A DNA stretch of 64,000 nucleotides from an uncultured Actinomycetes bacterium (GTDB lineage Bacteria > Actinomycetota > Thermoleophilia > Gaiellales > Gaiellaceae). Below the pieces are notes generated by a model. It was not told where the DNA came from and ran no database searches. It saw only the letters and a program-made list of their open reading frames with translations. Where the stretch lies: contig OY969889.1 of assembly GCA_963704335.1 (NCBI GenBank), positions 1,481,745 through 1,545,744 on the forward strand, read 5' to 3'. The position numbers and the translations under genes were made by a program. How positions within the stretch are numbered: the first letter of the stretch is position 1; each line of letters starts with the position of its first letter. This document shows positions 3,838 through 56,171 of this stretch, piece by piece.

Positions 3838-4515
3838 GTGGCCCGTCCGCTGGCAGTTCTCCTCGATGTCGACTTCACGCTCGTCCAGCCGGGGCCTGAG
3901 CTCGGTCCGGAGGCCTACCGGGCGCTAGGCGAGGCGCACGACCTGCGGCTGGACACCGACCGCTACGCGGACGCGCGGGCCGCCGCCGTCGACGATCTCG
4001 AGCGGCATCCCGAGCTCGACCACGACGAGGAGATCTGGATCCGCTTCACGGAGGACATTGTCCGGGGCATGGGCGGCGAGGGACCCGAGGTGGGGATCGT
4101 CGCCCGCGAGATCGTTAGCCGCTGGGAGCACGCGAGACACTTCGAGCTCTACGACGACGTCGTGCCCGTGCTCGCCGAGCTGAAGGAGCAGGGCTTGAAG
4201 GTCGGCCTCGTCTCGAACACGAGCCGCGACCTCGATGCGTTCGTCCGCCACTTCGGCATCGAGGTCGATGCCTGGATCTCGTCCGGGAGTCACGGGAAGG
4301 TCAAGCCCAGCCCGCTGATCTTCACGGCCGCGCTCGAGCTGCTCGAGGTCGAGGCCGCCGACGCCGTGATGGTCGGCGACTCGCTCGAGGACGACGTCGA
4401 AGGTGCGCGGGCGTGCGGGATGCGGGCGATCCTCATCGATCGCGCCGGTCGCTTTCCGGAACAGGCGGACCGGATCGAGTCGCTGCGCGAGCTGCCTGCT
4501 GCGCTCGCCGTCTAG
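3838..4515 (+). CDS. HAD-superfamily hydrolase
   Basis: GTG at 3838 gives VARPLAVLLDVDFTLV (DxDxT motif I). Later LVSNTS (motif II), K...GDS.EDD (motifs III/IV). The upstream part of the 3628 ORF is antisense to the MFS gene. Confidence 0.8.
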   Translation: MARPLAVLLDVDFTLVQPGPELGPEAYRALGEAHDLRLDTDRYADARAAAVDDLERHPELDHDEEIWIRFTEDIVRGMGGEGPEVGIVAREIVSRWEHARHFELYDDVVPVLAELKEQGLKVGLVSNTSRDLDAFVRHFGIEVDAWISSGSHGKVKPSPLIFTAALELLEVEAADAVMVGDSLEDDVEGARACGMRAILIDRAGRFPEQADRIESLRELPAALAV

Positions 4516-4727
4516 CTCAGCAACGCCAGTACCTCGCCGTCCTCGGGGAAGCGGCCCAGCTCGTGCTTTGAGAACACGGGCCGACCGTCCACGATGACGT
4601 CGTACTGGCCCCTGCCGCCTGGAATCGCCTCGGCGTCGTAGCCTTCGGCGATGAGCTCGGCCGCGAGACTCGCGGCCTGTTCGTCGTAGCCCGATCAGGT
4701 CGGGCAGTAGTGGATCTCGACGTGCAT
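4512..4727 (-). CDS. SelW/SelT/SelH (Rdx)-family thioredoxin-like mini-protein with in-frame TGA at the CxxU position (candidate selenoprotein; alternatively a pseudogene)
   Basis: Own translation: MHVEIHYCPT-[TGA at 4697-4695]-SGYDEQAASLAAELIAEGYDAEAIPGGRGQYDVIVDGRPVFSKHELGRFPEDGEVLALLS*. It parallels SelW (VxVxYCxxUGY...G.F.V.V.G..V.SK). GC3-rich coding continues for 60 codons after the TGA. Confidence 0.6.
4659..4677 (-). promoter_or_regulatory. SECIS-like hairpin 18 nt downstream of the in-frame UGA
   Basis: Minus-strand RNA GGCCGCGA-GUC-UCGCGGCC: perfect 8-bp stem, G in the apical loop, loop about 26 nt after the UGA. Confidence 0.45.
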
Positions 4728-4752
4728 CGCCGAGAGCCTACTCTTCGCCTCG

Positions 4753-5232
4753 ATGCAGACAGCGCCCGCGATCGAGCACGCGAGCCCTGACGATGTTGAG
4801 GCCGTCCGCCGTCTGTTCGTCGAGTACCAGGAGTCGCTCGGCGTCGACCTCTGCTTCCAGGGATTCGACCGCGAGTTGGCGGAGTTGCCCGGTGACTACG
4901 TTCCGCCCGCCGGCGGTCTGCTGGTTGTCCGAGCTGAGGACGGCATCGCCGCCTGCGTGGCGCTGCGCAAGCTCGATCCCGAGACGTGTGAGATGAAGCG
5001 GCTCTATGTCCGGCCGGCGCAGCGCGGTCTCGGGTGGGGAAGAGCGCTCGCCGAGGCCGTCATCGCGGAGGCGCGAGAGATCGGATACCGGCGGATGCGG
5101 CTCGACACGCTGCCCTCCATGAACGAGGCCCAAGCGCTCTACGAGCGGCTGGGCTTCCGCGAGATCGATCCGTACACCGAGAACCCGGTGCCCGGTGCGC
5201 GCTTCCTTCAGCTGGAGCTTAGGAGCTCCTAA
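4753..5232 (+). CDS. GNAT family N-acetyltransferase
   Basis: 159 aa. The acetyl-CoA binding motif RLYVRPAQRGLGWGRALAEAVIAEAREIGY...LGF is characteristic of GNAT. Confidence 0.88.
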   Translation: MQTAPAIEHASPDDVEAVRRLFVEYQESLGVDLCFQGFDRELAELPGDYVPPAGGLLVVRAEDGIAACVALRKLDPETCEMKRLYVRPAQRGLGWGRALAEAVIAEAREIGYRRMRLDTLPSMNEAQALYERLGFREIDPYTENPVPGARFLQLELRSS

Positions 5233-12325: not shown

Positions 12326-13093
12326 TCACGAGGCGAGTTGTCGCTCCAGCGTGCCGTCGGTCAGAGCGCGGACGAGGTCGGGTAGGGGATCGACGTCCGG
12401 CTTGTGCACCCGCAGGAACGCGAGGAGCTCTCGCGCGAGTCGCAGCGCCGCTTCGCCGAGCCTGGCGTCGTCGGCCTGGACAAGCCCGAGGCACAACGAG
12501 AGATCCTCTGCATAGTGTTCGGGTGCGATGGTAAGTGCGAGCGCAGCCTCAGCTGCCTCGCGTCGACTGCTTGCCAAGACGGGCTCGTTGAGGGGCAAGA
12601 GCAACCGGGGGGCGAGCTCGGCAGCGCTCATCGCATAGACGCGCAGCGCCAGTGAATCGTCGGTCTCCAACGCCCGTCGTACTTTCATCGAGAACTCGAA
12701 GAAGTCCTCGAGCTCGGGCGGACCTGCGGGTCTCCGGAGCGATGGGTCCTCACCCAAGCGCGTGCGGGCATCGTCGGTGGCCCATGCGTAGCGTGCAGGC
12801 TCGAGTTGCGGGAGGCCGAGCCACCAACTCGCGGGCTCAGTTTCCTTCGCCAACCGTTCGTCGATCGCCTGTACGCCAGCCGAAACATGGAGAGGGCTTG
12901 CACCCAGCCGTTCCTGGAACCACGTGCGGTAGCGACCCGCATCGCTTTCCAGGATCGCCGTCAGGTCGAGATCCGAAAGCTCGTCGGACGTTCCCTTCGC
13001 GTAGCTCCCGCCGACGAGCACGGCGATCGCTCCCGGCTCGAGCTCCCTCAGCCGAGTGACCGCCGGCTCGACTACGGCCGGGAGTTGATCCAT
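12326..13093 (-). CDS. nucleotidyltransferase-domain protein (Pol-beta superfamily)
   Basis: ATG 13093 gives MDQLPAVV.... The motif VLVGGSYAKGTSDELSDLDLTAI fits the GSxxxG...DxD NTase signature. The 5' end overlaps the puuD 3' end by 22 nt. Confidence 0.65.
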   Translation of the reverse strand: MDQLPAVVEPAVTRLRELEPGAIAVLVGGSYAKGTSDELSDLDLTAILESDAGRYRTWFQERLGASPLHVSAGVQAIDERLAKETEPASWWLGLPQLEPARYAWATDDARTRLGEDPSLRRPAGPPELEDFFEFSMKVRRALETDDSLALRVYAMSAAELAPRLLLPLNEPVLASSRREAAEAALALTIAPEHYAEDLSLCLGLVQADDARLGEAALRLARELLAFLRVHKPDVDPLPDLVRALTDGTLERQLAS

Positions 13094-14235
13094 CGCCCGA
13101 GGAGCTCGCGTTCTGCATCGGTCATGCCCGTTGAGTTGCCGAGCGGCATCACCCGCGTCAGAACGGCCACGCGTTCGATGGCCTCGGCTTGCGCCTCGAT
13201 CTGTCCGCGGTTCTCGAGCCGGACACCCTTGGGAGCTGCCGCCCCCGAGTGGCACGACGCGCAGCGCTGCTCGACGATCGGCGCAACCTCAGCGAAGGGG
13301 ACGGGAGGTCCACTCGTCGAGCTGTCGGCGTCCGGCGGCCTCATCCAGACGGCGATCGCGGCCAGCGCCGCCGCCGCTGTGACCGGTATCCACCACACGG
13401 TGTGGCCGGCATGGCGAAGGTTGAAGAAATGGCGGATCCAGGCGCCGACGAGCATCAGGCACACGAGCACGAGCCAGCCGTCGGCATGCCCGTACGCGAA
13501 GGCGAAGTGGTCGCCGAGCATGGCCAGCAGCACGGGCAGCGTGAGGTAGTTGTTGTGGACCGACCGATTCTTCGCACGGAGAAGCGGCGCCGGGTCCGGC
13601 TCTCGCCCTGCCTGCTTGGCTCTGACGAGATCCCAGTGGGCGGGGATGATGACGAAGAAGACGTTCGCCACCATGATCGTTCCCAGCATGGCCCCCAGCT
13701 GGAGCCACACCGCGCGGTCCGTGTAGAGGAGGCTCAGGCCGTAGGCGCTCGCCGCGACGAGCGCGACGAGCACCGCCGCCAGCACGAGCTCGTTGCGGAT
13801 CACGCGGCAGAGGACGTCGTAGACGACCCAGGCGGCGGCGAGCAACACCAGCGAGCTGACGATCGCTGCCCACTCGGACATGTCCGCGCCAACGAGATTG
13901 AGGTCGGCGTCGACGTAGTAGAGGACACAGAAGAGAGCGAAGCCCGAGAGCCAGGTCGTGTACGCCTCCCACTTGAACCAGTGCAGCGAGTCGGGCAGCG
14001 TACGCGGCGCGACGCGGAACTTCTGAACGAGGTAGAAGCCGCCGCTGTGGATCTCCCACGACTCGCCCGCGACGCCTTCGTCTGCATCCTGCTCCCGCCT
14101 GGGCGGCGCCAGGTGGTTGTCGAGAGCGACGAAGTAGAACGAGGTGCCGATCCAGACGACGCCGGCGATGACGTGCAGCCAGCGGAAGACGAGGTCGAGC
14201 CAGTCGATCAGGTACGGGTCGACGGCGACGGTCAT
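13072..14235 (-). CDS. puuD: membrane-bound urate hydroxylase PuuD (cytochrome c-containing)
   Basis: MTVAVDPYLIDWLDLVFRWLHVIAGVVWIGTSFYFVALDNHL...WEIHSGGFYLVQKF.., multiple TM helices, and a C-terminal haem-c site CASCH. Confidence 0.85.
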   Translation of the reverse strand: MTVAVDPYLIDWLDLVFRWLHVIAGVVWIGTSFYFVALDNHLAPPRREQDADEGVAGESWEIHSGGFYLVQKFRVAPRTLPDSLHWFKWEAYTTWLSGFALFCVLYYVDADLNLVGADMSEWAAIVSSLVLLAAAWVVYDVLCRVIRNELVLAAVLVALVAASAYGLSLLYTDRAVWLQLGAMLGTIMVANVFFVIIPAHWDLVRAKQAGREPDPAPLLRAKNRSVHNNYLTLPVLLAMLGDHFAFAYGHADGWLVLVCLMLVGAWIRHFFNLRHAGHTVWWIPVTAAAALAAIAVWMRPPDADSSTSGPPVPFAEVAPIVEQRCASCHSGAAAPKGVRLENRGQIEAQAEAIERVAVLTRVMPLGNSTGMTDAERELLGRWINSRP

Positions 14236-14672
14236 GCGCGCTGCCAGCGGTCGCGGGCGATGGCCACGAGCTCGGACAGTGCGGTGTCCAGCTCCTCGTC
14301 GCGGGTCTTCTCCAGCCGCTCACGGAGGACGGGAACGATCTCGGTCTTCGGCCGGCGGTTGACGAAGACGACGAAGCGGAAGCCGAAGCGCTCCTCGTAG
14401 CGGTGGTTGAGCTCTGCAAGCTCGACCAGCACGGCCGGATCGTCGTCGAAGCCCTGCTCGACTGCGGATTGCGCCGACAGTCCCTCGCGCTGCCCGATCG
14501 CCGGATGCGCTGCGAGCGCCTCGAGCTTCTCGTCTTCCGTCAGCGTGTGGAGGACATCGTCCGCGTTGCCGAGCGGGTTCTCGATCTCGGCCAGTCGCTC
14601 GACGAGGGCGGTCCGTCCTTCGAAGAGGCCGGCGAGCTCGTCGGCGGTCAGCTGCCGCGGTAGCTCGCGCAC
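14232..14672 (-). CDS. uraD: 2-oxo-4-hydroxy-4-carboxy-5-ureidoimidazoline (OHCU) decarboxylase
   Basis: ...LEALAAHPAIGQ...LNHRYEERFGFRFVVFVNRRPKTEIVPVLRERL matches the OHCU decarboxylase signature. GTG start overlaps the uraH 3' end by 25 nt. Confidence 0.85.
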   Translation of the reverse strand: MRELPRQLTADELAGLFEGRTALVERLAEIENPLGNADDVLHTLTEDEKLEALAAHPAIGQREGLSAQSAVEQGFDDDPAVLVELAELNHRYEERFGFRFVVFVNRRPKTEIVPVLRERLEKTRDEELDTALSELVAIARDRWQRA

Positions 14673-14941
14673 GCGTAGGGCGAGACGAGCAGCGGCACGT
14701 GATAGTGGCGCTGCGGATCCTCGATGGCGATCTCCAGCTCGACGCGGCGGAAGAACGCCGACGGAGGGTGGAAGACGATCCGGTACGTCCCGGTCTCCAG
14801 CGAGTTCGGTGACAGCTCGGCGATGCGCCCGTCGGCGTCGGTCTGCGCCGCCGTTAGCAGCGACTCGCCGCGGTAGAGCTCGACGATCACGCCTTCCGCG
14901 GGCTCGCCGCGCTCGGTGTCGAGCACGTGCGTGGAGATCAC
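14648..14941 (-). CDS. uraH: 5-hydroxyisourate hydrolase (transthyretin-like)
   Basis: MISTHVLDTERGEPAEGVIVEL...GTYRIVF...HYHVPLLVSPYACASYRGS. The C-terminal YRGS tetrapeptide is diagnostic of HIUases. Confidence 0.92.
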   Translation of the reverse strand: MISTHVLDTERGEPAEGVIVELYRGESLLTAAQTDADGRIAELSPNSLETGTYRIVFHPPSAFFRRVELEIAIEDPQRHYHVPLLVSPYACASYRGS

Positions 14942-14959
14942 GCTCGTGAGGATCGCACG

Positions 14960-15703
14960 TCAGCCCCAGCGGCGGAAGCCGCCTTCAGAATCGATGACCT
15001 GCCCGGTGACCCACTGCGCGTCGTCGGAGCAGAGCCAGGCGATCAGCCGCGCGGCATCGTCGGGCTGGCCCCAGCGGCCGAGCGGGAAGCGACTCGGCTC
15101 GACATCCGCAGCCCAGCCGGTGTCCGTAGGGCCAGGGTTGACGGCGTTGACGGTGATGCCACGGTCGATGAGCGTGTCGGAAAGCGTCGCCGTTACCTGT
15201 TGCAGTGCCCCCTTGGATGCCGCGTACGCGATTTCGGTGTTGAGCGGAGCCAGATGCTGCCCGGAGATGAGGAGCACGACCCGGCCGCCTACTCGGCCGT
15301 CGTGCTGGGCTGCGAACTCCTTCACGAGCAACAGCGAGGCGCGGACGTTGACGTGAAGGTGGTCGTCGAGGTCGTCAGCGGTCAGCTCGTCCAGGGTCCC
15401 GAGCCGACTCAACGTGTGATTGACGACAAGGATGTCGACGTGCCCCAGGGCGTCTTGAGCGGCATGGATGACCGCCGCGGGAGACCTGGGATCGGCGAAG
15501 TTTGCGTCGACATGTGCGACCGGACCACCGGCCTGCTTCAGCTCCGCGAGCACAGCGTCGAGGCCGCCGGCGTCCGGGTGCTCGTCCTCGGCCGCCCATG
15601 AGTGAACGAGTACCCCGGTGCCGCCGGCCAGCAGCCGCCGCGCGACGGCGAAGCCGATCCCGTTCCGCCGGCTGACGCCGGTTACCACGGCGGCTCTAGA
15701 CAC
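14960..15703 (-). CDS. SDR-family oxidoreductase
   Basis: MSRAAVVTGVSRRNGIGFAVARRL... (glycine-rich NAD(P) motif), YAASKGAL catalytic YxxxK. 247 aa. Confidence 0.85.
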   Translation of the reverse strand: MSRAAVVTGVSRRNGIGFAVARRLLAGGTGVLVHSWAAEDEHPDAGGLDAVLAELKQAGGPVAHVDANFADPRSPAAVIHAAQDALGHVDILVVNHTLSRLGTLDELTADDLDDHLHVNVRASLLLVKEFAAQHDGRVGGRVVLLISGQHLAPLNTEIAYAASKGALQQVTATLSDTLIDRGITVNAVNPGPTDTGWAADVEPSRFPLGRWGQPDDAARLIAWLCSDDAQWVTGQVIDSEGGFRRWG

Positions 15704-15779
15704 GGCGCGAATCTACTGCTCCTGTGGATGAGTTGTCACTGAATTGGCGCAACTCAGTGCCAGGCACTCGGCCGTGTCC

Positions 15780-17114
15780 CTAAGGGACAAAGCGGCTTGC
15801 CTGGGCGCGGTGCTCGCGGGCGATGTCGTCCTCTTCGGCCTTGACCAAGCGGCCGTCGCGGACGACGTCTTCACCGCCGACGAGCAGCCGGTCGACGCGG
15901 TGAGGGCCAGAGAGGACGAGCCCGGCGAGACGATCCTCGGCGCCGCCCAGCTCGAGACCATCCGTGCGCCACACGGCGAGATCCGCGCACTTTCCAGCTT
16001 CGATGGAGCCGATGTCGTCTCGTCCGAGCACGGCCGCGGCGCCTCGCGTCGCCAGTCGTAGCGCCTCCCGGCACGTCATCGCCCCAGGTCCGCCGCGGCC
16101 GCGCGCGACGAGCAGCGCCTGCTTGACCTCGAAGAAGAGGTCGGAGCGCTCGTTCGACGCCGAGCCGTCGACGCCCAGCCCCACCCGTACGCCCGCGTCG
16201 AGCAGTTCCCGGACGGGCGCTACGCCCGCTCCCAGCCGCAGGTTGGAGGTGGGGCAGTGCGCGACACCGACTCCTGCATCCGCAAACGTCTTGACGTCGG
16301 CCGGCGAGAGATGGACGCAGTGCGCGCACCACACGTCGTCGGCCGTCCATCCGAGCTCGGCGAGGTACTCGACCGGCGTGCAGCCGTAGAGCTCTCGGCA
16401 GTACGCGTCCTCCTCCACCGTCTCGGCCAGATGCGTGTGGAGCTGCAAGCCGAGCCGCCGCGCCAGCGCCGCCGAGTCGGCCATCAGCTGCCGGGTGACG
16501 GAGAACGGCGAGCAGGGCGCCACCGCGATCTGCACCATCGCGCCGCGGCCCGGCTCGTGGAGGCGCGCAGCAAGCTCCTCGGTCGCCGCCAGTACCGCAT
16601 CCGCCTCCTCCACGACCGAGTCCGGCGGTAGCCCGCCCGCCGACTCGCCGAGATCCATCGACCCGCGCGAGGCGACGATGCGCACGCCGAGCTCGCGGGC
16701 GGCCTGCACCTCGGCCTCGACGAGCCCGCTCGTCCCACGCGGAAAGAGGTAGTGGTGATCGAAGACAGTCGTGCACCCGGACAACGCAAGCTCCGCCAGC
16801 CCCGTCCGTGCGGCCGCGTACTCCGCCTCGTCGTCGAGGCGCGCCCAGACGGGATAGAGCTCACGCAGCCATGTGAAGAGGTCGGCCTCCTGCGCCCTCG
16901 CCCGCGTCAGCGTCTGGAAGAGATGGTGGTGCGTGTTGACGAGCCCCGGGGTGACGACCGCGCCGCCGAGATCGACCACCTGGTCCGCCTCCGGCGGCGC
17001 CCCCGCGCCGACCCCAGCGACCGCGTCGCCGTCGACCAGCACCCACCCCGACTCGTGCTCCGTGCCCGCGTCGTCCATCGTCACGATCCACCCGTTAGCG
17101 AGCAGCCGGCGCAT
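15780..17114 (-). CDS. amidohydrolase-superfamily deaminase, 8-oxoguanine/guanine-deaminase-like
   Basis: MRRLLANGWIVTMDD...VVTPGLVNTHHHLFQTLTR...HLAET..E...VHCVHL...PTSNLRLG: metal-binding HxH plus the downstream H/H/D pattern of cytosine/guanine-deaminase-type amidohydrolases. Confidence 0.8.
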   Translation of the reverse strand: MRRLLANGWIVTMDDAGTEHESGWVLVDGDAVAGVGAGAPPEADQVVDLGGAVVTPGLVNTHHHLFQTLTRARAQEADLFTWLRELYPVWARLDDEAEYAAARTGLAELALSGCTTVFDHHYLFPRGTSGLVEAEVQAARELGVRIVASRGSMDLGESAGGLPPDSVVEEADAVLAATEELAARLHEPGRGAMVQIAVAPCSPFSVTRQLMADSAALARRLGLQLHTHLAETVEEDAYCRELYGCTPVEYLAELGWTADDVWCAHCVHLSPADVKTFADAGVGVAHCPTSNLRLGAGVAPVRELLDAGVRVGLGVDGSASNERSDLFFEVKQALLVARGRGGPGAMTCREALRLATRGAAAVLGRDDIGSIEAGKCADLAVWRTDGLELGGAEDRLAGLVLSGPHRVDRLLVGGEDVVRDGRLVKAEEDDIAREHRAQASRFVP

Positions 17115-17181
17115 GTCGCGCGCACCCTACTAAGGTCGTATAGTCGAGCCTCGGTTTCGGTGGACGATCGGGAGGGTGACG

Positions 17182-18303
17182 ATGGAGAGGAAGCGCTTTG
17201 CGGTGGGTACGGCCGTGCTCGCCGCAATAGGGGCGGCGTTGGTGTTCGCCGCCGCGGGCTCGGGCGCGAAGTCGGCGCCGTACAAGGTTGCCTGGATCTA
17301 TCCGGGCCCGCACAACGACGGTGGCTGGTCGCAGTCGCACGACGAGGGCCGCCTGTACGCGCAGAAGAAGCTGGGCAGCGCGAAGGTCGAGACGACGTAC
17401 AAGGAGAACGTTTTCTCGAACGCCAACGTGCCGCAGGTCGTGGCCGGGCTCGCTCGCGAGGGCTACCAGATGATCTACGGCGCCTCGTTCGGCATGTTCG
17501 AGAACGGGGTCAACGGCCAGCTCTACCGCAAGTACCCGGACATCAAGTTCGAGCAGGCGACGGGGCTGCAGATCAAGCAGAACCAATCCGAGTACTTCGG
17601 CGCAGGTGAGGACACGATCTACCTCTCCGGCATCGCTGCCGGAGCCGCGTCCAAGAAGGGCCTGATCGGCTACGTCGTGCCGTTCGGCATCCCCGAGGTA
17701 GTGCGCCACATCAACGCCTTCGCCCTCGGCGCGCAGGTCGCGAACCCCAAGGCCAAGGTGAGGCTGATCTGGACGAACTCGTGGTACTCGCCGCCCAAGG
17801 AGACGGCTGCGGCACAGAGCCTGATCTCCGCGGGCGTCGATGTGCTCGGCCAGAACGTGGACAGCCCCGCGGCCGGCGTCGTGGCCGAGAAGTCGGGCAT
17901 CCCGTGGGTCGGCTACGACTCGGACGCCCGCAAGGTGGCACCGAAGCAGTGGCTCACGGCTGCGGTCTACAACTGGGGGCCGTACTACCTCCGCCGGATC
18001 CAGGCGGCTATCAACGGGAAGTGGAAGGCCGGCTTCTACTACGGGACGATCAAGGATGGCTTCACGGGGCTGGCACCGTACGGGCCCAAGGTGAGCGCGA
18101 AGACGAAGGCGCTGATCGCAGCGAAGCGGAAGGCGATCGTCTCGGGCAAGTTCAGCGTCTTCCAGGGGCCCCTTTACGACCAGAAGGGCAAGCTGGTGGT
18201 GCGAAAGGGGAAGACCCTGAAGGTGCTGCCCGACCTCTACGCGATGCAATGGCTCGTCAAGGGCGTGGTCGGGAAGGTCTCGAGCGTCCTGCCGCCAGGC
18301 TAG
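17182..18303 (+). CDS. BMP-family (PnrA-like) ABC transporter substrate-binding lipoprotein, nucleoside/purine type
   Basis: GGGAGG lies 6 nt before ATG 17182. Signal-like N-terminus, then KVAWIYPGPHNDGGWSQSHDEG...; family pattern GY..P.GIPEV. Confidence 0.85.
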   Translation: MERKRFAVGTAVLAAIGAALVFAAAGSGAKSAPYKVAWIYPGPHNDGGWSQSHDEGRLYAQKKLGSAKVETTYKENVFSNANVPQVVAGLAREGYQMIYGASFGMFENGVNGQLYRKYPDIKFEQATGLQIKQNQSEYFGAGEDTIYLSGIAAGAASKKGLIGYVVPFGIPEVVRHINAFALGAQVANPKAKVRLIWTNSWYSPPKETAAAQSLISAGVDVLGQNVDSPAAGVVAEKSGIPWVGYDSDARKVAPKQWLTAAVYNWGPYYLRRIQAAINGKWKAGFYYGTIKDGFTGLAPYGPKVSAKTKALIAAKRKAIVSGKFSVFQGPLYDQKGKLVVRKGKTLKVLPDLYAMQWLVKGVVGKVSSVLPPG

Positions 18304-18334
18304 GTCGTTGGGGGAGTCAGTCCCCGTTCGCCCA

Positions 18335-19888
18335 GTGAGTGAGAGAGGCGCCGGCGAATCCGGCGTCTCTCCGCCTCTTGCCGTACGGATGCGGGGCATC
18401 ACGAAGCGGTTTCCCGGCGTCGTCGCCAACGAGGATGCCCACTTCGAGGCTCGCGTTGGCGAGGTGCACGCCCTGCTCGGAGAGAACGGCGCGGGCAAGA
18501 CGACGCTCTCCAACATCCTGACCGGGCTCTACCGGCCGGACGACGGTGACATCGACCTGTACGGCGAGCCCGTGCACTTCCACTCGCCTCGGGACGCGAT
18601 CGACGCGGGCATCGGCATGGTGCACCAGCACTTCCGGCTCGTCGATCCCTTCACGGTCGCCGAGAACGTCGTGCTCGGCGACCACCGCGGTGAGGGCCGC
18701 CGCTTCTTCGTCCATCCTCCCGCGATCGAGCGGCGCATCACCGAGCTGGGCGAGACCTACGGCCTCGCGGTCGATCCCTCGGCGCGCATCTGGCAGCTCT
18801 CGATCGGCGAGCAGCAGCGGGTCGAGATCCTGAAGGCGCTCTACCGGGATGCCCGAGTGCTGATCATGGACGAGCCGACCGCGGTGCTCACGCCCCAGGA
18901 GGCGACTGCCCTGTTCGAGACGCTGCGCTCGATGGCCGCCGAGGGGAAGACCGTCATCTTCATCTCGCACAAGCTCCACGAGGTGATGGCCGTCGCCGAC
19001 CGCGTGACCGTGCTGCGCGGCGGACGTACCGTGGCGACGGTCGACATCGCCGACGCCTCCCCTCGCTCGCTGGCGGCGCTGATGGTGGGGCGCGAGGTCG
19101 AGGGCTCGAGCAGGCAGGTGCCCGAGCACACGCCCGGAGCCGTCGCGCTCGAGCTCGAAGGCGTGAGCGCTCACGGCGATCGCGGCGGAGATGCCCTGCG
19201 AGACGTCACGCTCCGCGTGCGCGCCGGGGAGATCGTGGGCGTCGCCGGAGTGGCGGGCAACGGCCAGCGGGAGCTGGCCGAGACCGTATCCGGCATGCGT
19301 GCGCCTTCGGCGGGCACCGTGCAGGTGGCCGGCCGGCGGCTGCGAGGAGGCGATCCGCGCTCCGCGATTGCCGCCGGCGTCGCGCACGTCCCCGAGGACC
19401 GGCTGGGAACCGGGCTCGCGCCGAGCCTGACCATCACGCGCAACGCGGTGCTGAAGACGTACCGCTCGCCGCCCGTGTCGAGCGGGCCGCTCCTGCGGCT
19501 GCGGCGGATGGCGGAGATCGCGCGCACGCTGATCACGCGCTACGACGTCAAGGCGCCGGGACCCGATACGCCCGTCCGCAACCTGTCGGGAGGAAACCTC
19601 CAGAAGCTCGTGCTCGGGCGCGAGTTCCAGGGCGAGCCGGCCGTGCTCATCGCGGCGCAGCCCACGCGCGGCCTCGACGTCGGCGCGATCGAGACCGTCC
19701 ATGCCTATCTCCGCGAGGCAGCCGCCGAAGGCGTAGCCGTGCTAGTGATCAGCGAGGACCTCGACGAGATCCTCGCCCTCGCCGACCGCGTCGCGGTGAT
19801 GTACGAAGGCGCGGTCGTCGCCGAGCTCGACGCCTCGGCGGCCACGCCCGAGGAGATTGGGTTCCTCATGGCCGGCGGAAAGCGCTGA
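18335..19888 (+). CDS. ABC transporter ATP-binding protein with duplicated ATPase domains
   Basis: Walker A GENGAGKTT, signature LSIGEQQRVEI, Walker B LIMDEPT. Second domain LSGGNLQKLVL / ISEDLDE. Start uncertain (GTG 18335 or TTG 18308). Confidence 0.9.
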   Translation: MSERGAGESGVSPPLAVRMRGITKRFPGVVANEDAHFEARVGEVHALLGENGAGKTTLSNILTGLYRPDDGDIDLYGEPVHFHSPRDAIDAGIGMVHQHFRLVDPFTVAENVVLGDHRGEGRRFFVHPPAIERRITELGETYGLAVDPSARIWQLSIGEQQRVEILKALYRDARVLIMDEPTAVLTPQEATALFETLRSMAAEGKTVIFISHKLHEVMAVADRVTVLRGGRTVATVDIADASPRSLAALMVGREVEGSSRQVPEHTPGAVALELEGVSAHGDRGGDALRDVTLRVRAGEIVGVAGVAGNGQRELAETVSGMRAPSAGTVQVAGRRLRGGDPRSAIAAGVAHVPEDRLGTGLAPSLTITRNAVLKTYRSPPVSSGPLLRLRRMAEIARTLITRYDVKAPGPDTPVRNLSGGNLQKLVLGREFQGEPAVLIAAQPTRGLDVGAIETVHAYLREAAAEGVAVLVISEDLDEILALADRVAVMYEGAVVAELDASAATPEEIGFLMAGGKR

Positions 19889-20057
19889 TGCGCTCCCTCA
19901 CGTTCCTGGGGCGTCGCTGGCAAAGGAGGCAAGCGAGTGGCGCGCAGGACAGTACTCAGTACGGTCAAGCGCCGCGAGCGCAGCATCCTGCCGCCAGCGA
20001 CGTCACCCTTCGGCGGAGCGTGGCTCCGCCACGCGGGAGCCGAAGGGGGCCAGGGAC

Positions 20058-21185
20058 GTGAGGATAGAGAGACGGCTCGATCAGCCGTGGTGGCTGTCGG
20101 TCGTCGTGCCCGTCGGGTCGCTCGTCGTGGCCTTCGGCGTGATGGCGGTGGTGCTGGCAGCGACCGGCCACGACCCGTGGGACACGTATCACCGGATGAT
20201 CGAAGCCGGCTTCACGGGCAACGGCGCGTTTTCCGCGACGCTCATCTCCGCGACGCCGATCCTGTTCACCGGGCTCGCCGCTGCAGTCGCCTTCCGGATG
20301 CAGCTGTTCAACATCGGCGCCGAGGGCCAGCTCTATCTCGGCGCGGTCGGCGCGTCCTGGATCGCGCTGCAGCTCGGCGACCGCGACGCCACGTCGACGC
20401 CGCTCTTCGTCCTGCTCATGTGCGTGGCGGGGGGAGTGGGTGGCGCGCTCTGGGCGCTCATCCCGGGCGTCCTGCGGGCGTTCGCCCGGACGAACGAGAT
20501 CATCACCTCGCTCATGCTCAATTACGTCGCGGGACTGCTGCTGACGTACCTCATCTTCGACAGCGCCTCGTACTGGCGTGACACATCGACCCTTCAGGCG
20601 CGGGCGTTCCCGCAGGGCAAGCCGATGCCCATCGAGTCCGACTGGCCGACCTTCGGGTCGAGCCTCGTCGTCCCGCTCGGCTTCCTGATCGGCATCGGAG
20701 CAGCAGTCGTCCTCTGGGGCCTGTACTCGCGGACGCGCTTCGGTTTCGAGGTCGGCGTGATCGCCGATTCGCCGCGCGCGGCGCGCTATGCAGGCATGCG
20801 CACGCGTCGCAAGATCCTGGCCGTCATGGGCATCTCCGGCGCCGTAGCCGGCATCGGTGGCGCGAGCCAGATCGGTGACTTCACGCACACGCTCGACGGC
20901 AGCCCCAGTGGGATGCAGGCGGCTGCCTTCGGCTACACGGGGATCGTCGTCGCGGCTCTGGCGCGCTACAACCCGTTCGCGGTGTGTCTCGTCGCCGTCC
21001 TGATCGGCGGGCTCCAGAACGCCGGCTTCACCCTCCAGGGGGTCGACTTCCCGTCCGGGCTCGTCGGCGTCATGCAGGGGATCATCCTGTTCTGCGCGCT
21101 CGGCGGTGAGCTGCTCGTTCGCTACCGGGTCCGGCTCGCCCGGACGCGCCGGTCGTCCGGGCCGGCTACGGAGCCTGCGGCATGA
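20058..21185 (+). CDS. ABC transporter permease (BMP/nucleoside system, subunit 1)
   Basis: GTG 20058 gives VRIERRLDQPWWLSVVVPVGSLVVAFGVMAV.... Motif FNIGAEGQLYLGA. The in-frame sequence upstream is not protein-like. Confidence 0.85.
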   Translation: MRIERRLDQPWWLSVVVPVGSLVVAFGVMAVVLAATGHDPWDTYHRMIEAGFTGNGAFSATLISATPILFTGLAAAVAFRMQLFNIGAEGQLYLGAVGASWIALQLGDRDATSTPLFVLLMCVAGGVGGALWALIPGVLRAFARTNEIITSLMLNYVAGLLLTYLIFDSASYWRDTSTLQARAFPQGKPMPIESDWPTFGSSLVVPLGFLIGIGAAVVLWGLYSRTRFGFEVGVIADSPRAARYAGMRTRRKILAVMGISGAVAGIGGASQIGDFTHTLDGSPSGMQAAAFGYTGIVVAALARYNPFAVCLVAVLIGGLQNAGFTLQGVDFPSGLVGVMQGIILFCALGGELLVRYRVRLARTRRSSGPATEPAA

Positions 21186-22153
21186 GCATCAACGACAGCC
21201 TGTTGGTGTTCGTGCTGGCGCAGGCCGTGCTCTACGGCACACCACTCCTGTACGCGGCGCTCGGCGAGCTGTTGGCGGAACGATCCGGGGTGCTCAACCT
21301 CGGGGTGGAAGGGATGATGCTGTTCGGCGCGGCAGTCGGCTTCTGGGCCACCCAGCGGGTTGACGGCGCGAACGCCGTCGTGCTCTGCGCGGCCGTCGTC
21401 GCCGCGGGAGCGGCCGGCGCAGCGATGGCGGCGATCCACGCCTTTCTCACCGTCACGCTGCGCGCGAGCCAGATCGTCTCGGGCCTCGCGCTCACGATCT
21501 TCGCCGGCGGACTCGGGTTGTCGGCGTACTTCGGCACCGAGCTCCACCTCGCCGACCTGCCGCCCACGCACCAGTTCGGCTCGCTCGACGTCTTCGGCCT
21601 CGGCGACCTCTGGGTGTTTGGCCCGATCCTCTTCGACCAGTCGGCACTCGTCTACGGGTCGTGGGCGCTGACTGCGGCCGTCGCCCTGTACCTCACGCGG
21701 ACTCGCTGGGGCTTGAACGTGCGCGCGGTGGGCGAGTCGCCGGCTACGGCGGACGCGATGGGAATCAACGTGACGCTCTATCGCTACGTTCACGTCATCG
21801 TGGGAGGAGCCCTCGCCGGCGTCGGCGGTGCGTGCTACAGCCTGTCGATCACGGCCGGCTGGTCGGCCGGCGACACACTCGTTGGCGGCGCGGGGTGGAT
21901 CGCCATTGCGCTCGTCATCTTCGCGTTCTGGCGTGCCGAGCTCTGCCTCGTCGGCGCGTATCTCTTCGGCGGCCTGTCGGCCTTGCCTTTCGCACTGCAG
22001 GCCCACGGCGTGCAGGTGACCCCCGAGCTGCTCCAGGCGCTGCCGTACGTGATGACGATCGTCGTGCTCGTCCTCGTCTCGACGGGCTTCGCGAAGCGTC
22101 GCGTGGGCGCGCCGGCGGCGCTCGGCGTACCGTACGTGCGCGAGGAGCGCTAG
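21182..22153 (+). CDS. ABC transporter permease (subunit 2)
   Basis: ATGA overlap with the preceding gene. ...LGELLAERSGVLNLGVEGMMLFGA... is typical of this permease family. Confidence 0.88.
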   Translation: MSINDSLLVFVLAQAVLYGTPLLYAALGELLAERSGVLNLGVEGMMLFGAAVGFWATQRVDGANAVVLCAAVVAAGAAGAAMAAIHAFLTVTLRASQIVSGLALTIFAGGLGLSAYFGTELHLADLPPTHQFGSLDVFGLGDLWVFGPILFDQSALVYGSWALTAAVALYLTRTRWGLNVRAVGESPATADAMGINVTLYRYVHVIVGGALAGVGGACYSLSITAGWSAGDTLVGGAGWIAIALVIFAFWRAELCLVGAYLFGGLSALPFALQAHGVQVTPELLQALPYVMTIVVLVLVSTGFAKRRVGAPAALGVPYVREER

Positions 22154-22162
22154 AACTTCGGG

Positions 22163-22960
22163 ATGGAGGTGCTGAAGCCGCGCACGCTGGCTGAGGCGCT
22201 CGTGCTGCGCGCCGCGCACCCGGGCGCGCTCGCGATCCGCGGCGGCACCGACGTCATGGTCGAGCTCAACTTCGACCGTGCGAGGCCCGAGGCGATCCTG
22301 GACCTCGGCGAGGTGGCGGAGCTCGGAGGCTGGTCGCGCGAGGACGGAATGCTGCGTCTGGGTGCCGGCCTTACGTATGCGGAGATCGAGCACGGCGAGC
22401 TGGCACCGGAGCTGCCTGCGCTGGCGGAGGCGTCGCGAACGGTCGGCTCTCCCCAGATCCGCAACCGCGGCACTCTCGGCGGCAACCTCGGTACGGCGTC
22501 TCCCGCCGGCGATGCACTGCCGCCTCTGCTCGTCGACGAGGCTCAGGTGGAGCTCGCCAGCGCGGCGCGCGGCCCGCGGCAGATGGCGATTCGCGAATTC
22601 CTGCTCGGCCCGAAGCGCAACGCCCTCGAGGAAGACGAGCTGATCGTGGCGGTGCTGGTGCGACCCTCCGGCACCGCGCAGACGTTCATGAAGGTAGGCC
22701 CGCGGAACGCGATGGTGATCGCCGTCTGCTCGCTCGCAGTCGCGGCCGATCGGGAGCGTGGCGAGATCCGGGCGTCGTTCGGGTCGGCCGGTCCCGTACC
22801 CGGCTTCGTGCGCGTGCCGCTGGACGAGGCGCGCACCCTCCCCGAGGCTGTGGCAGCCGCCTGCTCGCCGATCGACGACGTGCGCGGAACGGCCGCCTAT
22901 CGGCGCCATGCGCTCGGTGTTCTCGCCGGCCGCGCCGTCGCGAGGTGCCTGGCGGCATGA
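22163..22960 (+). CDS. xanthine dehydrogenase family, FAD-binding subunit
   Basis: MEVLKPRTLAEALVLRAAHPGALAIRGGTDVMVELNF...VGSPQIRNRGTLGGNLGTASPAGD is the FAD-binding molybdopterin dehydrogenase pattern. Confidence 0.88.
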   Translation: MEVLKPRTLAEALVLRAAHPGALAIRGGTDVMVELNFDRARPEAILDLGEVAELGGWSREDGMLRLGAGLTYAEIEHGELAPELPALAEASRTVGSPQIRNRGTLGGNLGTASPAGDALPPLLVDEAQVELASAARGPRQMAIREFLLGPKRNALEEDELIVAVLVRPSGTAQTFMKVGPRNAMVIAVCSLAVAADRERGEIRASFGSAGPVPGFVRVPLDEARTLPEAVAAACSPIDDVRGTAAYRRHALGVLAGRAVARCLAA

Positions 22961-23415
22961 GGATCGAGGTCATCGTCAACGGCGCACGGTTGGAGGCCGA
23001 CGTCTGGCCGGGCGAGAGCCTGCTCTTCACGCTCCGCGAGCACATGGGGCTGCCCGGCTCGAAGAACGCGTGCGAGCAAGGTGAGTGCGGATCGTGCTCG
23101 GTGCTGCTCGACGGAAAGCTCGTGTGCTCGTGCCTCGTGCTGTCTGCGCAGGCCGACGGGCACGAGGTCGTCACGGTGGAGGGGCTGGGGGACGCCGACG
23201 CGCTGCATCCCGTGCAGGCCGCCTTCGTCGAGGCGGGGGCGGTGCAGTGCGGGTTCTGCACGCCGGGGCTCGTTGTGGCGGCGGCCGACCTCATCGCCCG
23301 CACGCCCGGCCCGTCGGAGGACGACATCCGCGAGGCTCTCTCCGGCAACATCTGCCGCTGCACCGGCTATCAGAAGATCGTGGACGCGGTGAAGCTGGCC
23401 GCGGAGCGCACATGA
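22957..23415 (+). CDS. xanthine dehydrogenase family, [2Fe-2S] subunit
   Basis: ATGA overlap. MRIEVIVNG...GSKNACEQGECGSCSVLLDG..V.SCL...VQCGFCTPG...CRCTGYQKI: both 2Fe-2S cysteine clusters are present. Confidence 0.92.
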   Translation: MRIEVIVNGARLEADVWPGESLLFTLREHMGLPGSKNACEQGECGSCSVLLDGKLVCSCLVLSAQADGHEVVTVEGLGDADALHPVQAAFVEAGAVQCGFCTPGLVVAAADLIARTPGPSEDDIREALSGNICRCTGYQKIVDAVKLAAERT

Positions 23416-25745
23416 GCCACGACTGCCTTGCTCCCCGGGGCCACCCCGCGCCTCCTCCCGGTTTCAGCGTATGGGGGAAATCTGCGCGGGTGGGTGACGA
23501 AAGTGCACCAACATTGGAACAAGCCGTTGCCGCTCCCAGAAGGCTCGAGCATGGTCGCGTCGGCGAGAGCACCGTCCGCTCCGACGCAGTGCCCAAGACC
23601 AAAGGCGAATTCGCCTTCTCTAGCGATCTCGAGGCGCCAGGCATGCTCTGGGGTCACACCGTCCGCAGCCCGCACGCCCACGCACGCGTTCTCGGGATCG
23701 ACGCCGCCGCAGCCCTCGCCCTCCCCGGCGTGCACGCCGTTCTGACGCACGCCGACGTGCCGGGCGCGAAGACGTACGGCCTCGAGATCCCCGATCAGCC
23801 CGTGTTCGCGATCGACCGCGTCCGCTATCACGGAGAGGCCGTGGCGGTAGTCGCCGCCGATACCCCCGAGCAGGCACGCCGCGCCGCCGCCTCCATCGAA
23901 GTCGCATACGAGGAGCTGCCACCGGTCTCCGATCCCGAGCGAGCGACGGAGCAGGAGCCGCTGCATCCGGATCGACCGGCCGCCGGCCACGGCTTCCGCG
24001 ACGACCCGCGCCCGAACGTCGTCCGCTCGATGGTCATCAGGCACGGCGACCCAGACGTCGAGGGCGACGTCACGGTCAGCGGCGTCTACGAGGTCGGCAC
24101 CCAGGACCAGGCATTCCTCGGCCCCGAATCCGGCCTCGCCGTCCCGGACGGAGAAGGAGGCGTCGACATCTACGTCGCTACCCAGTGGATCCACGTGGAC
24201 CGCGACCAGATTGCGCCCTGCCTCGCGCTCGCTCCCGAGCAGGTGCGCGTCCACCTCGCCGGCGTCGGCGGCGCGTTCGGCGGCCGCGAGGACCTATCGA
24301 TCCAGATCCACGCCGCGCTGCTGGCCCTCCACACGGGACGGCCGGTGAAGATGGTCTACAACCGAGAAGAGTCCTTCACGGGGCACGTCCACCGCCATCC
24401 CGCGAAGATCTGGGCGGAGCACCGCGCGACGCGCGACGGACGGCTCGTCGCCGTTCGCGCGCGCATCCTCCTCGACGGCGGCGCGTACGCATCGAGCTCG
24501 ACCGCAGTCCTTGCGAACGCCTGCTGCTTCGTCGCCGGCCCGTACAACGTCGAGAACGTCCTGGTCGAAGGCACGTGCGTCTACACGAACAACCCACCCT
24601 GCGGAGCCATGCGCGGCTTCGGCGCCGTTCAGGGCTGTTTCGCGCACGAAGCGCAGATGGACAAGCTCGCGGCTGCGCTCGACATCGATCCCGTCGAGCT
24701 GCGGCTGCTCAACGCCCTCAAGCCCGGCGACACGCTGCCCACGGGCCAGCTGATCACCGGCTCGCTGCCCGTCGCCGAGGTCATCCGCCGCTGCGCCGAC
24801 CTCGCGCCGCCCGAGCCCGAGGAGCTGCCGCGGGAGCCCGTACGCCTCCCCGGCGGCACCGGTAACACGACCCGCGGCGAAGGCGTCCGCCGGGGCACCG
24901 GCTTCGCCGTCGGCCTCAAGAACATCTGCTTCTCGGAGGGGTTCGACGATTACGCAGCCGCGCGCGTGCGGCTGTTCACGAACACCGGCGGCACGCTCTC
25001 GGCCGAAGTGCTGTGTGCGGCCGCCGAGGTCGGCCAGGGCGTAACCGACGTGATTGCACAGGTCGCTCGCCAGGAGCTGGGAATCGAGGATCTGATCGTC
25101 ACCACGCCGTCGACCAGCGGAGTCGGCTCGGCGGGCTCGTCGTCCGCTTCGCGGATGACATGGATGGCGGCAGGCGCCGTACGGCTCGCGTGCCAGGAGG
25201 CACTCGCCGAGCGCGAGCGGACAGGGGGCGATGTCGACGTCGAGCGCGTCTATCGCCACCTGCCCACGTACCCGCTCGACCCCGAGACCGGCCAGGTGCT
25301 CGGCGAGCGCGCGCACGTTGCCTTCGCCTGCGCGGCCATGAAGGTCGTGGCCGAAGTGGACGTCGACCTCGGGCTGACCCGGATCGTCTGGATCGGGACG
25401 GCGCAGGACGTGGGCAAGGCGCTGAATCCGCTCGCGGTGCACGGCCAGATCGAAGGCGGCACCGCCCAGGGCATCGGCCTCGCGCTGATGGAGGAGATCC
25501 AGACGACCAACGGCCTGATAACGAACGCGAGCTTCACCGACTACCTGATCCCGACCGCCCTCGACGTGCCCCCGATCGAGGCGGTGCTCGTCGAAGATCC
25601 CGAGCCGGATGGTCCCTACGGGCTGAAGGGCGTGGGCGAGCCGCCGACCGTGGTCTCCACGGCTGCAGTCGTCTCTGCCCTGCGCGACGCGACAGGGCGA
25701 GAGCTGACGCGGGTGCCGGTGCGGCCCGACGACATCGCGCTGTGA
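23412..25745 (+). CDS. xanthine dehydrogenase family, molybdopterin-binding large subunit
   Basis: ...RVGESTVRSDAVPKTKGEFAFSSDL...MLWGHTVRSPHAHARV...GGAFGGRE...GAMRGFG...GVGEPP. Start ambiguous: ATG 23412 (ATGA coupling), GTG 23490 or TTG 23514. The first about 30 codons are atypical and lower in GC. Confidence 0.88.
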   Translation: MSHDCLAPRGHPAPPPGFSVWGKSARVGDESAPTLEQAVAAPRRLEHGRVGESTVRSDAVPKTKGEFAFSSDLEAPGMLWGHTVRSPHAHARVLGIDAAAALALPGVHAVLTHADVPGAKTYGLEIPDQPVFAIDRVRYHGEAVAVVAADTPEQARRAAASIEVAYEELPPVSDPERATEQEPLHPDRPAAGHGFRDDPRPNVVRSMVIRHGDPDVEGDVTVSGVYEVGTQDQAFLGPESGLAVPDGEGGVDIYVATQWIHVDRDQIAPCLALAPEQVRVHLAGVGGAFGGREDLSIQIHAALLALHTGRPVKMVYNREESFTGHVHRHPAKIWAEHRATRDGRLVAVRARILLDGGAYASSSTAVLANACCFVAGPYNVENVLVEGTCVYTNNPPCGAMRGFGAVQGCFAHEAQMDKLAAALDIDPVELRLLNALKPGDTLPTGQLITGSLPVAEVIRRCADLAPPEPEELPREPVRLPGGTGNTTRGEGVRRGTGFAVGLKNICFSEGFDDYAAARVRLFTNTGGTLSAEVLCAAAEVGQGVTDVIAQVARQELGIEDLIVTTPSTSGVGSAGSSSASRMTWMAAGAVRLACQEALAERERTGGDVDVERVYRHLPTYPLDPETGQVLGERAHVAFACAAMKVVAEVDVDLGLTRIVWIGTAQDVGKALNPLAVHGQIEGGTAQGIGLALMEEIQTTNGLITNASFTDYLIPTALDVPPIEAVLVEDPEPDGPYGLKGVGEPPTVVSTAAVVSALRDATGRELTRVPVRPDDIAL

Positions 25746-25755
25746 CCTCCGCCGG

Positions 25756-26538
25756 CTACGGGAAGTCGATCAGTTGCGGGCCGTATCGGTGCTCGGGCAG
25801 CGATGCACCGGCGCGATCGAACAGCTCGAGCCAGAAGGCCCTCATCGCCCGAATTTGCTCCGGCGTATGCGCTTCGTCGCTTATGCCTGCTCCGGCAACG
25901 TAAGCCTCCACGCCACGAAGATCCGGAATTCGGCCTTCCGCGTCGAGGCGATCCAGTTCACGCCTTCTTCCGCCAGGCGTCAGAACGTCGACCGGGCGAA
26001 ATGACGACGACACCTCGAACATGTCGGAGAGCAGCACGAGGTGCTTCTGCTCGACGTCTCCCTTGTTCGCAAAGTAGCGCTCCGCGTTCTCCAGCGAATC
26101 GACGATGGCAGTTCCGGGAGCTTCCGGCGGGGTGGATGCGACGTTGTCGAATCCCCTCTGCACCTCTTCGATCGCCTCATCCAGCCTGTTCTTATGGTCG
26201 AGCGGGTTCGTGTTGAAGTTCTTGCCCGGCAGCTCGGCCTCCCTGATGTTCGACTCGGTGAGAGAGTTCGCGGATATCCGGTCGACGCCCATCCACATGT
26301 GCTCGCCGCTGAGGGAGCCGCCGTCGCCGAAAGCCGAGAGGACGGTTTCCAGCGCTTCGCCATATCTGTCCCGCGCTTCTTGTGACTGCGTGCTCTGCGA
26401 GGTGTCGGCGAGCACGAGCACCGCACCTTCGGGCTCGCCGGAGCCTCCGAGTAGGCCGCATCCACTGGCCATGACGGCGAGGCTCAAGAACCCGAACGCG
26501 GTTGCTACAGCCGCCGCGCGGCGCGGACCTCGGCTCAC
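25756..26538 (-). CDS. predicted lipoprotein with vWA-like fold and MIDAS motif; function unknown
   Basis: GTG start in a GTGA overlap with the upstream gene. Signal peptide plus lipobox-like ...LAVMASGC. VLVLADTSQS (DxSxS), GTAIVDSL, HLVLLSDM follow the vWA strand/MIDAS pattern. Visibly lower GC than the neighbours. Confidence 0.6.
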   Translation of the reverse strand: MSRGPRRAAAVATAFGFLSLAVMASGCGLLGGSGEPEGAVLVLADTSQSTQSQEARDRYGEALETVLSAFGDGGSLSGEHMWMGVDRISANSLTESNIREAELPGKNFNTNPLDHKNRLDEAIEEVQRGFDNVASTPPEAPGTAIVDSLENAERYFANKGDVEQKHLVLLSDMFEVSSSFRPVDVLTPGGRRRELDRLDAEGRIPDLRGVEAYVAGAGISDEAHTPEQIRAMRAFWLELFDRAGASLPEHRYGPQLIDFP

Positions 26539-27875: not shown

Positions 27876-27996
27876 GCGATCCGCTCCTGCGGCTTGAGTG
27901 AGGGCTTCCAATTGACCCGGAGCCCATCGGGACTAGGCCGAACATGGTCGCACTTTGCGGGAATCTGTCAACTATGTAACGACGTGCGACGCGCTC

Positions 27997-56161: not shown

Positions 56162-56171
56162 GCCCAGAAGC

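Follow-up and report, generated by a model that had tools for sequence, protein, structure and literature searches.

The 64-kb window analysed here (64,000 nucleotides of contig OY969889.1, assembly GCA_963704335.1, from an uncultured member of the Gaiellaceae within the Actinomycetota) carries on its minus strand a small gene interrupted by an in-frame TGA. We interpret it, with a probability of about 0.92, as a functional gene for a 71-residue Rdx (SelW/SelT/SelH) thioredoxin-fold protein of the SelW-like type whose UGA codon 11 is decoded as selenocysteine (Sec). A sequence-only reading of this DNA had proposed such a gene, and translation confirms its frame: from the ATG at 4727 the product reads MHVEIHYCPT-U-SGYDEQAASLAAELIAEGYDAEAIPGGRGQYDVIVDGRPVFSKHELGRFPEDGEVLALLS, with 60 sense codons between the TGA and the TAG stop at 4514-4512, and the predicted peptide that spans the motif is HYCPTU(Se)SGYDEQAASLAAELIAEGYDAEAIPGGR. 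The GC content of the third codon positions (GC3) falls from 1.00 ahead of the TGA to 0.87 past it, against 0.81-0.93 in the genes of the window (GC content of the whole window, 68.8%), which bears out the coding bias that had been described past the TGA.

The assignment to the Rdx family, first made from the motif, holds in profile searches in which the TGA was read as Cys. The Pfam model Rdx (PF10262) gives 45.0 bits (cut-off 22.6, E=1.3e-11), with residues 2-69 on profile positions 1-71 of 74, and TIGR02174 ('CXXU_selWTH') gives 42.6 bits (cut-off 34.2) in an end-to-end alignment; both run across the TGA. The top NCBIfam model is NF041051 ('SelTWH_Campy'), aligned over its full length with 62.6 bits and E=3e-17, and because this score lies below the curated cut-off of 88 bits, we place the gene in the wider subfamily only and not in that equivalog. 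Among solved structures, the top sequence match is MIEN1 (2LJK, E=5e-5), whose CEPC motif aligns with C-P-T-[TGA]. The TGA therefore stands where MIEN1 has the second Cys of its CxxC motif, that is, at the second redox residue, as had been claimed. The bacterial Rdx proteins from structural genomics match the window protein weakly by phmmer (E-values of 0.03-0.8).

The Rdx fold is modelled for a database homologue, P0001, which is 77% identical to the window protein. Its AlphaFold model (predicted local distance difference test, pLDDT, 92.8; predicted template modelling score, pTM, 0.81) places strand beta1 at residues 2-7, the motif at residues 8-11 in the beta1/alpha1 loop, and helix alpha1 at residues 14-27; three further strands and a helix at the C-terminus complete the fold. 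This is the thioredoxin-like beta-alpha-beta-beta-beta-alpha arrangement of the Rdx family, with the CxxC/CxxU motif (C8-P-T-U11) directly after the first beta strand. A Foldseek search of the PDB with this model returned only Rdx-fold proteins among the top 23 matches, with template modelling (TM) scores of up to 0.83.

A search of 5.8 billion predicted proteins found 66 relatives (P0001-P0066), and a DNA scan covering one genome per species found 80 loci, to which two more (L083 and L084) were added from European Nucleotide Archive (ENA) assemblies. Half of the 80 loci (L001-L040) are from metagenome-assembled genomes (MAGs) of uncultured Gaiellaceae or 'Actinomycetes' and are 58-83% identical to the window protein; the remaining ones belong to Planctomycetota, Acidobacteriota, Desulfobulbia, Obscuribacterales, Myxococcales, and others, covering at least seven other phyla. 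The sequence-only reading had singled out the CxxU column as the place to look for Cys or Sec. This column is TGA in 77 of the 79 readable loci (a locus without its 5' end, L070, stands outside the 79, and the frameshifted L078 is counted among the 77), and Cys, coded by TGT or TGC, is found only in L071 and L072, both from Obscuribacterales. The two close relatives from the ENA assemblies likewise have TGA, and so do all 43 orthologues of the Gaiellaceae group, none of which has Cys. The concern that the reads might turn the TGA into TGC or TGT is answered by the same data, since a read error would not recur in 77 of 79 homologues.

The Obscuribacterales hold both types of gene, a Sec type with TGA and hairpin (L060, L062, and L065) and the Cys type of L071 and L072, in which the hairpin described below has decayed. 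They form a natural pair of Sec-to-Cys (or Cys-to-Sec) conversion that is useful for dating the loss of the RNA signal. The Gaiellaceae homologue L078 (10001-10211) keeps TGA and hairpin and has a 1-nt frameshift after ...AAELTR, which is either an indel of long-read assembly or the mark of a recent pseudogene.

The codons of the 43 distinct Gaiellaceae-group orthologues vary in a way that separates selection on the protein from selection on the RNA. Where the amino acid is invariant, third positions vary on both sides of the TGA; past it, their entropy is 0.9-1.8 bits (1.2-1.8 at G41, G62, P40, A36, and G68), and the first and second positions of those codons do not vary at all. In the six codons AASLAA, which form the hairpin, the third-position entropies are 0.52, 0, 0, 0, 0.43, and 0.58 bits. 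Free third positions in one place and frozen ones in the other therefore indicate purifying selection at the protein level downstream of the TGA, together with an additional synonymous constraint exactly over the hairpin. The worry that homologues might lack similarity past the TGA is thus unfounded. The codon just before the UGA (4698-4700) is ACC (Thr) in 43 of 43 orthologues, with a third-position entropy of 0, and the Pro codon preceding it has 1.57 bits; the invariant ACC may reflect a codon-context constraint on Sec insertion.

These data bear on two other explanations of the interrupted frame. A single base change, from TGC or TGT to TGA, would suffice to make an ordinary CxxC Rdx gene look like this one, either as a pseudogene or through a sequencing or assembly error, and L078 shows that errors or decay do occur in such assemblies. 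We consider this very improbable, given that the TGA recurs in independent homologues from several phyla and assemblies, that the part downstream of it is under purifying selection, and that it is accompanied by a co-evolving hairpin lost only in the Cys forms. Translation could also end at the UGA after 10 residues, with the conserved downstream part being made separately, in the manner of the 50-residue open reading frames (ORFs) that gene callers mark from an M/V-AEL start in relatives. However, the first in-frame start past the TGA in the window is a GTG at codon 47, with 25 codons left; the first 10 codons (strand beta1 and the Cys of the motif) are conserved among the orthologues; the family hidden Markov models and the fold require both parts; and a 50-residue product would be without beta1 and the redox motif. 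We give this fragment hypothesis hardly any weight.

The hairpin that the sequence-only reading had described after the UGA is present, perfect over 8 bp and with a G in its loop. It reads GGCCGCGA-GUC-UCGCGGCC (4677-4659 on the minus strand, with the 5' arm at 4677-4670, the loop GUC at 4669-4667, and the 3' arm at 4666-4659), is separated from the UGA by 17 nt (counted to the stem) or 25 nt (counted to the loop), and has a free energy of -14.7 kcal/mol when folded in isolation. At the protein level, it encodes (Q)AASLAA, the start of helix alpha1. The published model of the bacterial Sec insertion sequence (bSECIS) has a loop of 3-9 nt on a stem of 4-16 bp, a G in the first two loop positions, typically as N1-G-[G/U]-N-N2, a UGA-to-loop distance of 16-37 nt, and a minimum free energy of -7.5 kcal/mol or lower (PMC13188914, Fig. 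2). All four constraints hold for the window hairpin (the 3-nt loop, written A-GUC-U, fits N1-G-U-N-N2), so that the geometry proposed for it stands.

The minus-strand reading of the 64 kb was searched for perfect hairpins with 8 bp or more, a loop of 3-9 nt, and a G within the first two loop positions, which gave 17 scan entries, about 13 of them distinct. For an arbitrary site, the probability that such a hairpin follows with its loop at a distance of 16-37 nt is about 0.6%, and when the codons of QAASLAAE were resampled synonymously, all 8 pairs formed in 2.3% of the trials. Rfam at gathering thresholds found no match in the window to a SECIS family, nor to any other. As seen in this single sequence alone, the hairpin is moderate evidence.

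The comparative evidence comes from an alignment of the 77 Sec-type sequences, covering -3 to +50 around the UGA. The 8 pairs form in 92.8% of its cells, and sliding the 3' arm by 1-3 columns lowers this share to 24-51%. Changes on both sides have occurred in five of the 8 pairs and are seen in 71 cells (23 expected); the covariation score of the alignment was not reached in any of 500 shuffles. RNAalifold independently predicted the same core of six pairs. Compensation takes place at paired synonymous third positions (GCC...GGC to GCU...AGC, and CGG/GCC to CGC/GCG) and also through paired residues, with Ala to Ser in one arm and Ala to Glu in the other turning a G-C pair into U-A. The register of the hairpin is constant across all Sec forms, and its loop is mostly AGUCU (n=42), GGUCU (n=13), or AGUUU (n=7), with G at the first loop positions in 76 of 77. 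In the two Cys-type loci, L071 and L072, which belong to one clade, at least 3 pairs are broken and no hairpin folds at the site. With its frozen synonymous sites, its paired changes of Ala to Ser and Ala to Glu, and the decay of the hairpin after the change from Sec to Cys, the gene is a clean natural case in which an overlapping RNA signal has shaped the coding sequence.

A genetic code that reads TGA as sense (code 4 or 25) would also give an uninterrupted frame, and several public gene calls do translate the motif as CPTW. This is likewise most unlikely. The stop codons of the 42 predicted genes of the window are TAG in 21, TGA in 19, and TAA in 2, and since TGA terminates 19 of these high-GC3 genes, the code is the standard one; the same genes contain 294 ordinary TGG codons. 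Furthermore, a scan of the window and 42 related loci for conserved in-frame TGAs yielded only the Rdx gene, kept in 42 of the 42 other sequences, and a peroxiredoxin gene of the AhpC/TSA type in two of the loci (L006 and L008). The other TGA-interrupted frames of the window were discarded, being only adjacent genes in the same frame or antisense frames. One of them, the TGA of an SDR gene (14960-14962, minus strand), mimics read-through in that a HIUase gene of high coding potential follows it in the same frame; relatives keep this TGA as a stop, and we count it as a false positive.

In the peroxiredoxin, the TGA occupies the position of the peroxidatic Cys (...FYLFDWSAT-U-TSEMELLRD...), and the Pfam AhpC-TSA match (E=8e-26) runs across it. 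It is followed by a hairpin, GCUCCUG-CGUGA-CAGGAGC, with 7 bp, G in the loop, and a loop that starts 21 nt past the UGA. C-terminal fragments of the same gene are found at the cut ends of L010 and L005. Peroxiredoxins are a known family of bacterial selenoproteins (PMC1088965), and this second candidate in relatives speaks indirectly for Sec machinery in the source genome.

Several results weigh against Sec decoding of the Rdx gene. The 71-nt region of the hairpin does not fold significantly better than dinucleotide shuffles (z = -0.82), and the case for an RNA structure rests for this reason on the comparative data. AASLAA is semi-palindromic at the codon level, with at least 4 of the 8 pairs forming under any choice of codons, so that some of the pairing simply follows from the amino acids encoded. 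The Sec-peroxiredoxin is present only in more distant relatives (Rdx proteins 76-79% identical) and absent from the window. In 1.29 Mb made up of the window and the 80 Rdx loci, neither tblastn nor ARAGORN found selA, selB, selD, or tRNA-Sec, and in all 82 related flanks were without them; the best tblastn match of E. coli SelA, SelB, and SelD has an E-value of 1.8, and the only tRNA that ARAGORN found in the window is a tRNA-Pro. We thus infer the Sec-decoding capacity of the source genome, and the incorporation of selenium is a prediction.

The missing genes have been put in perspective by a control set of 80 metagenome loci chosen by the high-GC SelD motif DVTGFGL, in which the same methods detected selD in 80 of 80, selA and/or selB in several, and tRNA-Sec in 13. 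Since methods that detect these loci found nothing at the Rdx loci, the sel genes are not linked to the Rdx gene. The metagenome selD loci were also tried as candidates for the Gaiellaceae machinery, and none could be assigned to Gaiellaceae by tetranucleotides or shared neighbours: the tetranucleotide correlation is 0.94-0.99 for true Gaiellaceae and up to 0.97 for unrelated high-GC loci, which gives no separation, and the best neighbouring gene shared with a selD locus is only 54% identical. Five of these high-GC contigs (L115, L120, L127, L133, and L149) carry a compact selD/tRNA-Sec/selA/selB cluster.

That no Sec machinery was located in any sequence linked to the gene, and that selenium in the protein is a prediction, would both suit a UGA that is recoded outside the canonical SelA/SelB/tRNA-Sec route, either by near-cognate read-through (as Trp or Cys) or by insertion of Cys through the Sec pathway when selenium is scarce. 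We find this unlikely, although less so than the error, fragment, and genetic code explanations. The loop motif and the spacing fit the published SelB-type bSECIS model, the site is the catalytic CxxC/CxxU of a family known for bacterial Sec (PMC1088965, PMC1794560), and in a second gene, carried by relatives, a TGA likewise stands in place of a catalytic Cys. Table 1 lists the features of the gene as a Sec-containing Rdx protein, together with the peroxiredoxin gene.

Table 1. Coordinates of the predicted selenoprotein genes and their elements (positions in the window unless a locus is named).
Feature	Position	Strand	Basis
SelW-like (Rdx family) selenoprotein coding sequence, 71 codons/residues	4512..4727	minus	Translation, PF10262 and TIGR02174 matches, codon variation among orthologues
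CPTU redox motif, codons 8-11 (TGC CCG ACC TGA)	4695..4706	minus	Alignment with MIEN1 (2LJK), model of P0001
In-frame TGA, codon/residue 11, predicted Sec	4695..4697	minus	TGA column in homologues
Bacterial SECIS hairpin within the coding sequence	4659..4677	minus	Folding, covariation, frozen third positions
25-nt spacer from the Rdx ATG (4727, minus) to the divergent GNAT ATG (4753, plus)	4728..4752		Sequence context
Sec-peroxiredoxin gene, 152 residues	L006:851-1309, L008:2200-2658	plus	TGA at L006:983-985 and L008:2332-2334

As had been predicted from its stop codon, the gene escapes ORF calling. Database relatives that appear to be full length read CPTWSGYD, the TGA having been rendered as Trp under code 4, and most of the others are fragments of 50 residues that begin just past the hairpin, at the M/V-AEL start. 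Both kinds of entry are artefacts caused by the in-frame TGA. The annotations of L083 (8474-8626) and L084 (10001-10153) give the gene as an ORF of 50 residues that matches Rdx weakly, and some of the shortened entries are named 'selT/selW/selH-like putative selenoprotein' at source. In every public relative inspected, the gene appears either as the shortened 50-residue product or as a translation under an incorrect genetic code; the selenium dependence of a common soil lineage is therefore invisible in MAG-based surveys. The value of the finding lies mainly in annotation, and it leaves the knowledge of selenoproteins or of Sec decoding unchanged.

The hairpins of E. coli fdhF and fdnG, which direct the SelB-dependent insertion of Sec, lie within the coding sequence, directly after the UGA. 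The hairpin of the window gene has the same placement, and its apical loop likewise has a G followed by U; the loop GGUCU of the out-group homologues presumably resembles that of fdhF. The distance from the UGA to the stem is about 11 nt in fdhF and 17 nt here. The stem of the window gene also differs in being perfect, without a bulged U, and its binding by SelB is a prediction.

SelW-like selenoproteins with a CxxU motif were described in bacteria in 2005 (Zhang, Fomenko, and Gladyshev; PMC1088965), and in the Sargasso Sea data they outnumbered every other selenoprotein family (48 Sec and 7 Cys forms); in 2006 the family was noted to have very few Cys homologues in Sec-using organisms (Zhang et al.; PMC1794560). 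The present gene is a typical member of this family. It shares with it a length of about 70 residues, a CxxU motif right after beta1, a SECIS few codons downstream with a G in a small apical loop, a large excess of Sec over Cys forms (PMC1794560), and a presumed redox function. It differs in its host, the uncultured Gaiellaceae group of Actinomycetota; in our literature search, we found no paper tying Gaiella or Thermoleophilia to selenoproteins. Two further differences set the Gaiellaceae clade apart: its hairpin starts one codon farther from the UGA (U-SGYDxRAASLAA versus U-NYxPRAAGLAA), and the loop is closed by an A-U and not a G-U pair. New here are thus the host lineage, the one-codon-longer spacing in the clade, and the proof that public annotations miss the gene.

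Among proteins of known structure, mouse SelW (2NPB) and MIEN1/C17orf37 (2LJK) have the same Rdx thioredoxin-like fold (Foldseek TM scores of 0.64-0.73), and their CxxU/CxxC motifs align residue for residue with that of the window protein. Both are longer, MIEN1 has Cys in place of Sec, and eukaryotic SelW relies on a SECIS of different architecture in the 3' untranslated region (PMC1088965, Fig. 7). The closest folds are those of the bacterial 'SelW-related' Rdx structures 2FA8, 2OBK, 2OKA, 2P0G, 2OJL, and 3DEX, all Cys forms, with TM scores of 0.70-0.83 but only 22-35% identity to P0001. The alignment with NF041051, although end to end, stays under the cut-off of that model, as mentioned above.

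The mechanism that we propose would start with a ribosome nearing the UGA, where the hairpin 17 nt downstream would act as a bacterial SECIS with a loop of the form (A/G)GU(C/U)U. SelB-GTP-Sec-tRNA(Sec) would bind the hairpin and bring Sec to the A site, competing with release factor 2. Once melted by the ribosome, the hairpin would be translated as AASLAA, which forms the initial turns of helix alpha1. In the folded protein, Cys8-Pro-Thr-Sec11 at the beta1/alpha1 junction would cycle between the selenolate/thiol and the selenenylsulfide. We infer the dependence on SelB, the incorporation of selenium, the redox chemistry, and the physiological substrate; the most likely role of the small product is that of a thiol-dependent oxidoreductase or an antioxidant.

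A broader proposal, to which we give even odds, is that the Gaiellaceae group is an unrecognised Sec-using lineage with a small selenoproteome directed at oxidative stress (the SelW-like protein and the Sec-peroxiredoxin), in which the SelW-like protein would be fixed as the Sec form and mis-annotated throughout MAG catalogues. The SECIS would be carried by the AA(S/G)LAA coding motif with a loop of the (A/G)GUCU type, kept at the same position in at least eight phyla. If true, very different SelB proteins would all recognise a minimal SECIS that is portable and nearly universal. The Gaiellaceae group, a family of Actinomycetota, is abundant in soil, and the cytochrome bd oxidase and urate oxidase encoded in the window suggest an aerobic lifestyle.

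The Rdx gene lies between a convergent gene for a HAD hydrolase and a divergent gene for a GNAT acetyltransferase (4753-5232, plus strand). Its TAG stop overlaps the TAG stop of the HAD gene in the palindrome CTAG (4512-4515). This synteny is found only in the closest relatives (L001-L003, L083, and L084), which also keep the GNAT ATG 25 nt from the Rdx ATG; the neighbours differ at the other Gaiellaceae loci. Since the arrangement is restricted to the closest relatives, the gene context is uninformative on function. A scan of 4300-5100 for promoters and terminators found neither a sigma-70-like promoter nor a terminator, and there is no Shine-Dalgarno-like sequence at the usual spacing ahead of the Rdx ATG, which suggests a leaderless mRNA or one with a very short leader, or else promoters within neighbouring genes. 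The 5' expression signals would lie within 4728-4752 or inside the neighbouring gene.

The remaining genes of the window include none related to selenium; besides the cytochrome bd oxidase, they code for other housekeeping functions. A purine-catabolism cluster at 13072-29691 includes a urate oxidase N-terminal-type protein, a HIUase/transthyretin, an SDR protein, an amidohydrolase, a Bmp/PnrA-type ABC transporter, the flavin adenine dinucleotide (FAD) and molybdopterin subunits of a xanthine-dehydrogenase-type enzyme, and an adenine deaminase. In the close relatives L083 and L084, an OHCU decarboxylase is also present at this cluster. Finally, the minus strand at 52877-56233 codes for a protein of 1118 residues, unrelated to the Rdx gene, in which an N-terminal zinc ribbon is combined with an adenylate/guanylate cyclase domain and an AAA_16 ATPase domain, resembling the architecture of signal-transduction proteins of the LuxR/MalT-like STAND type.

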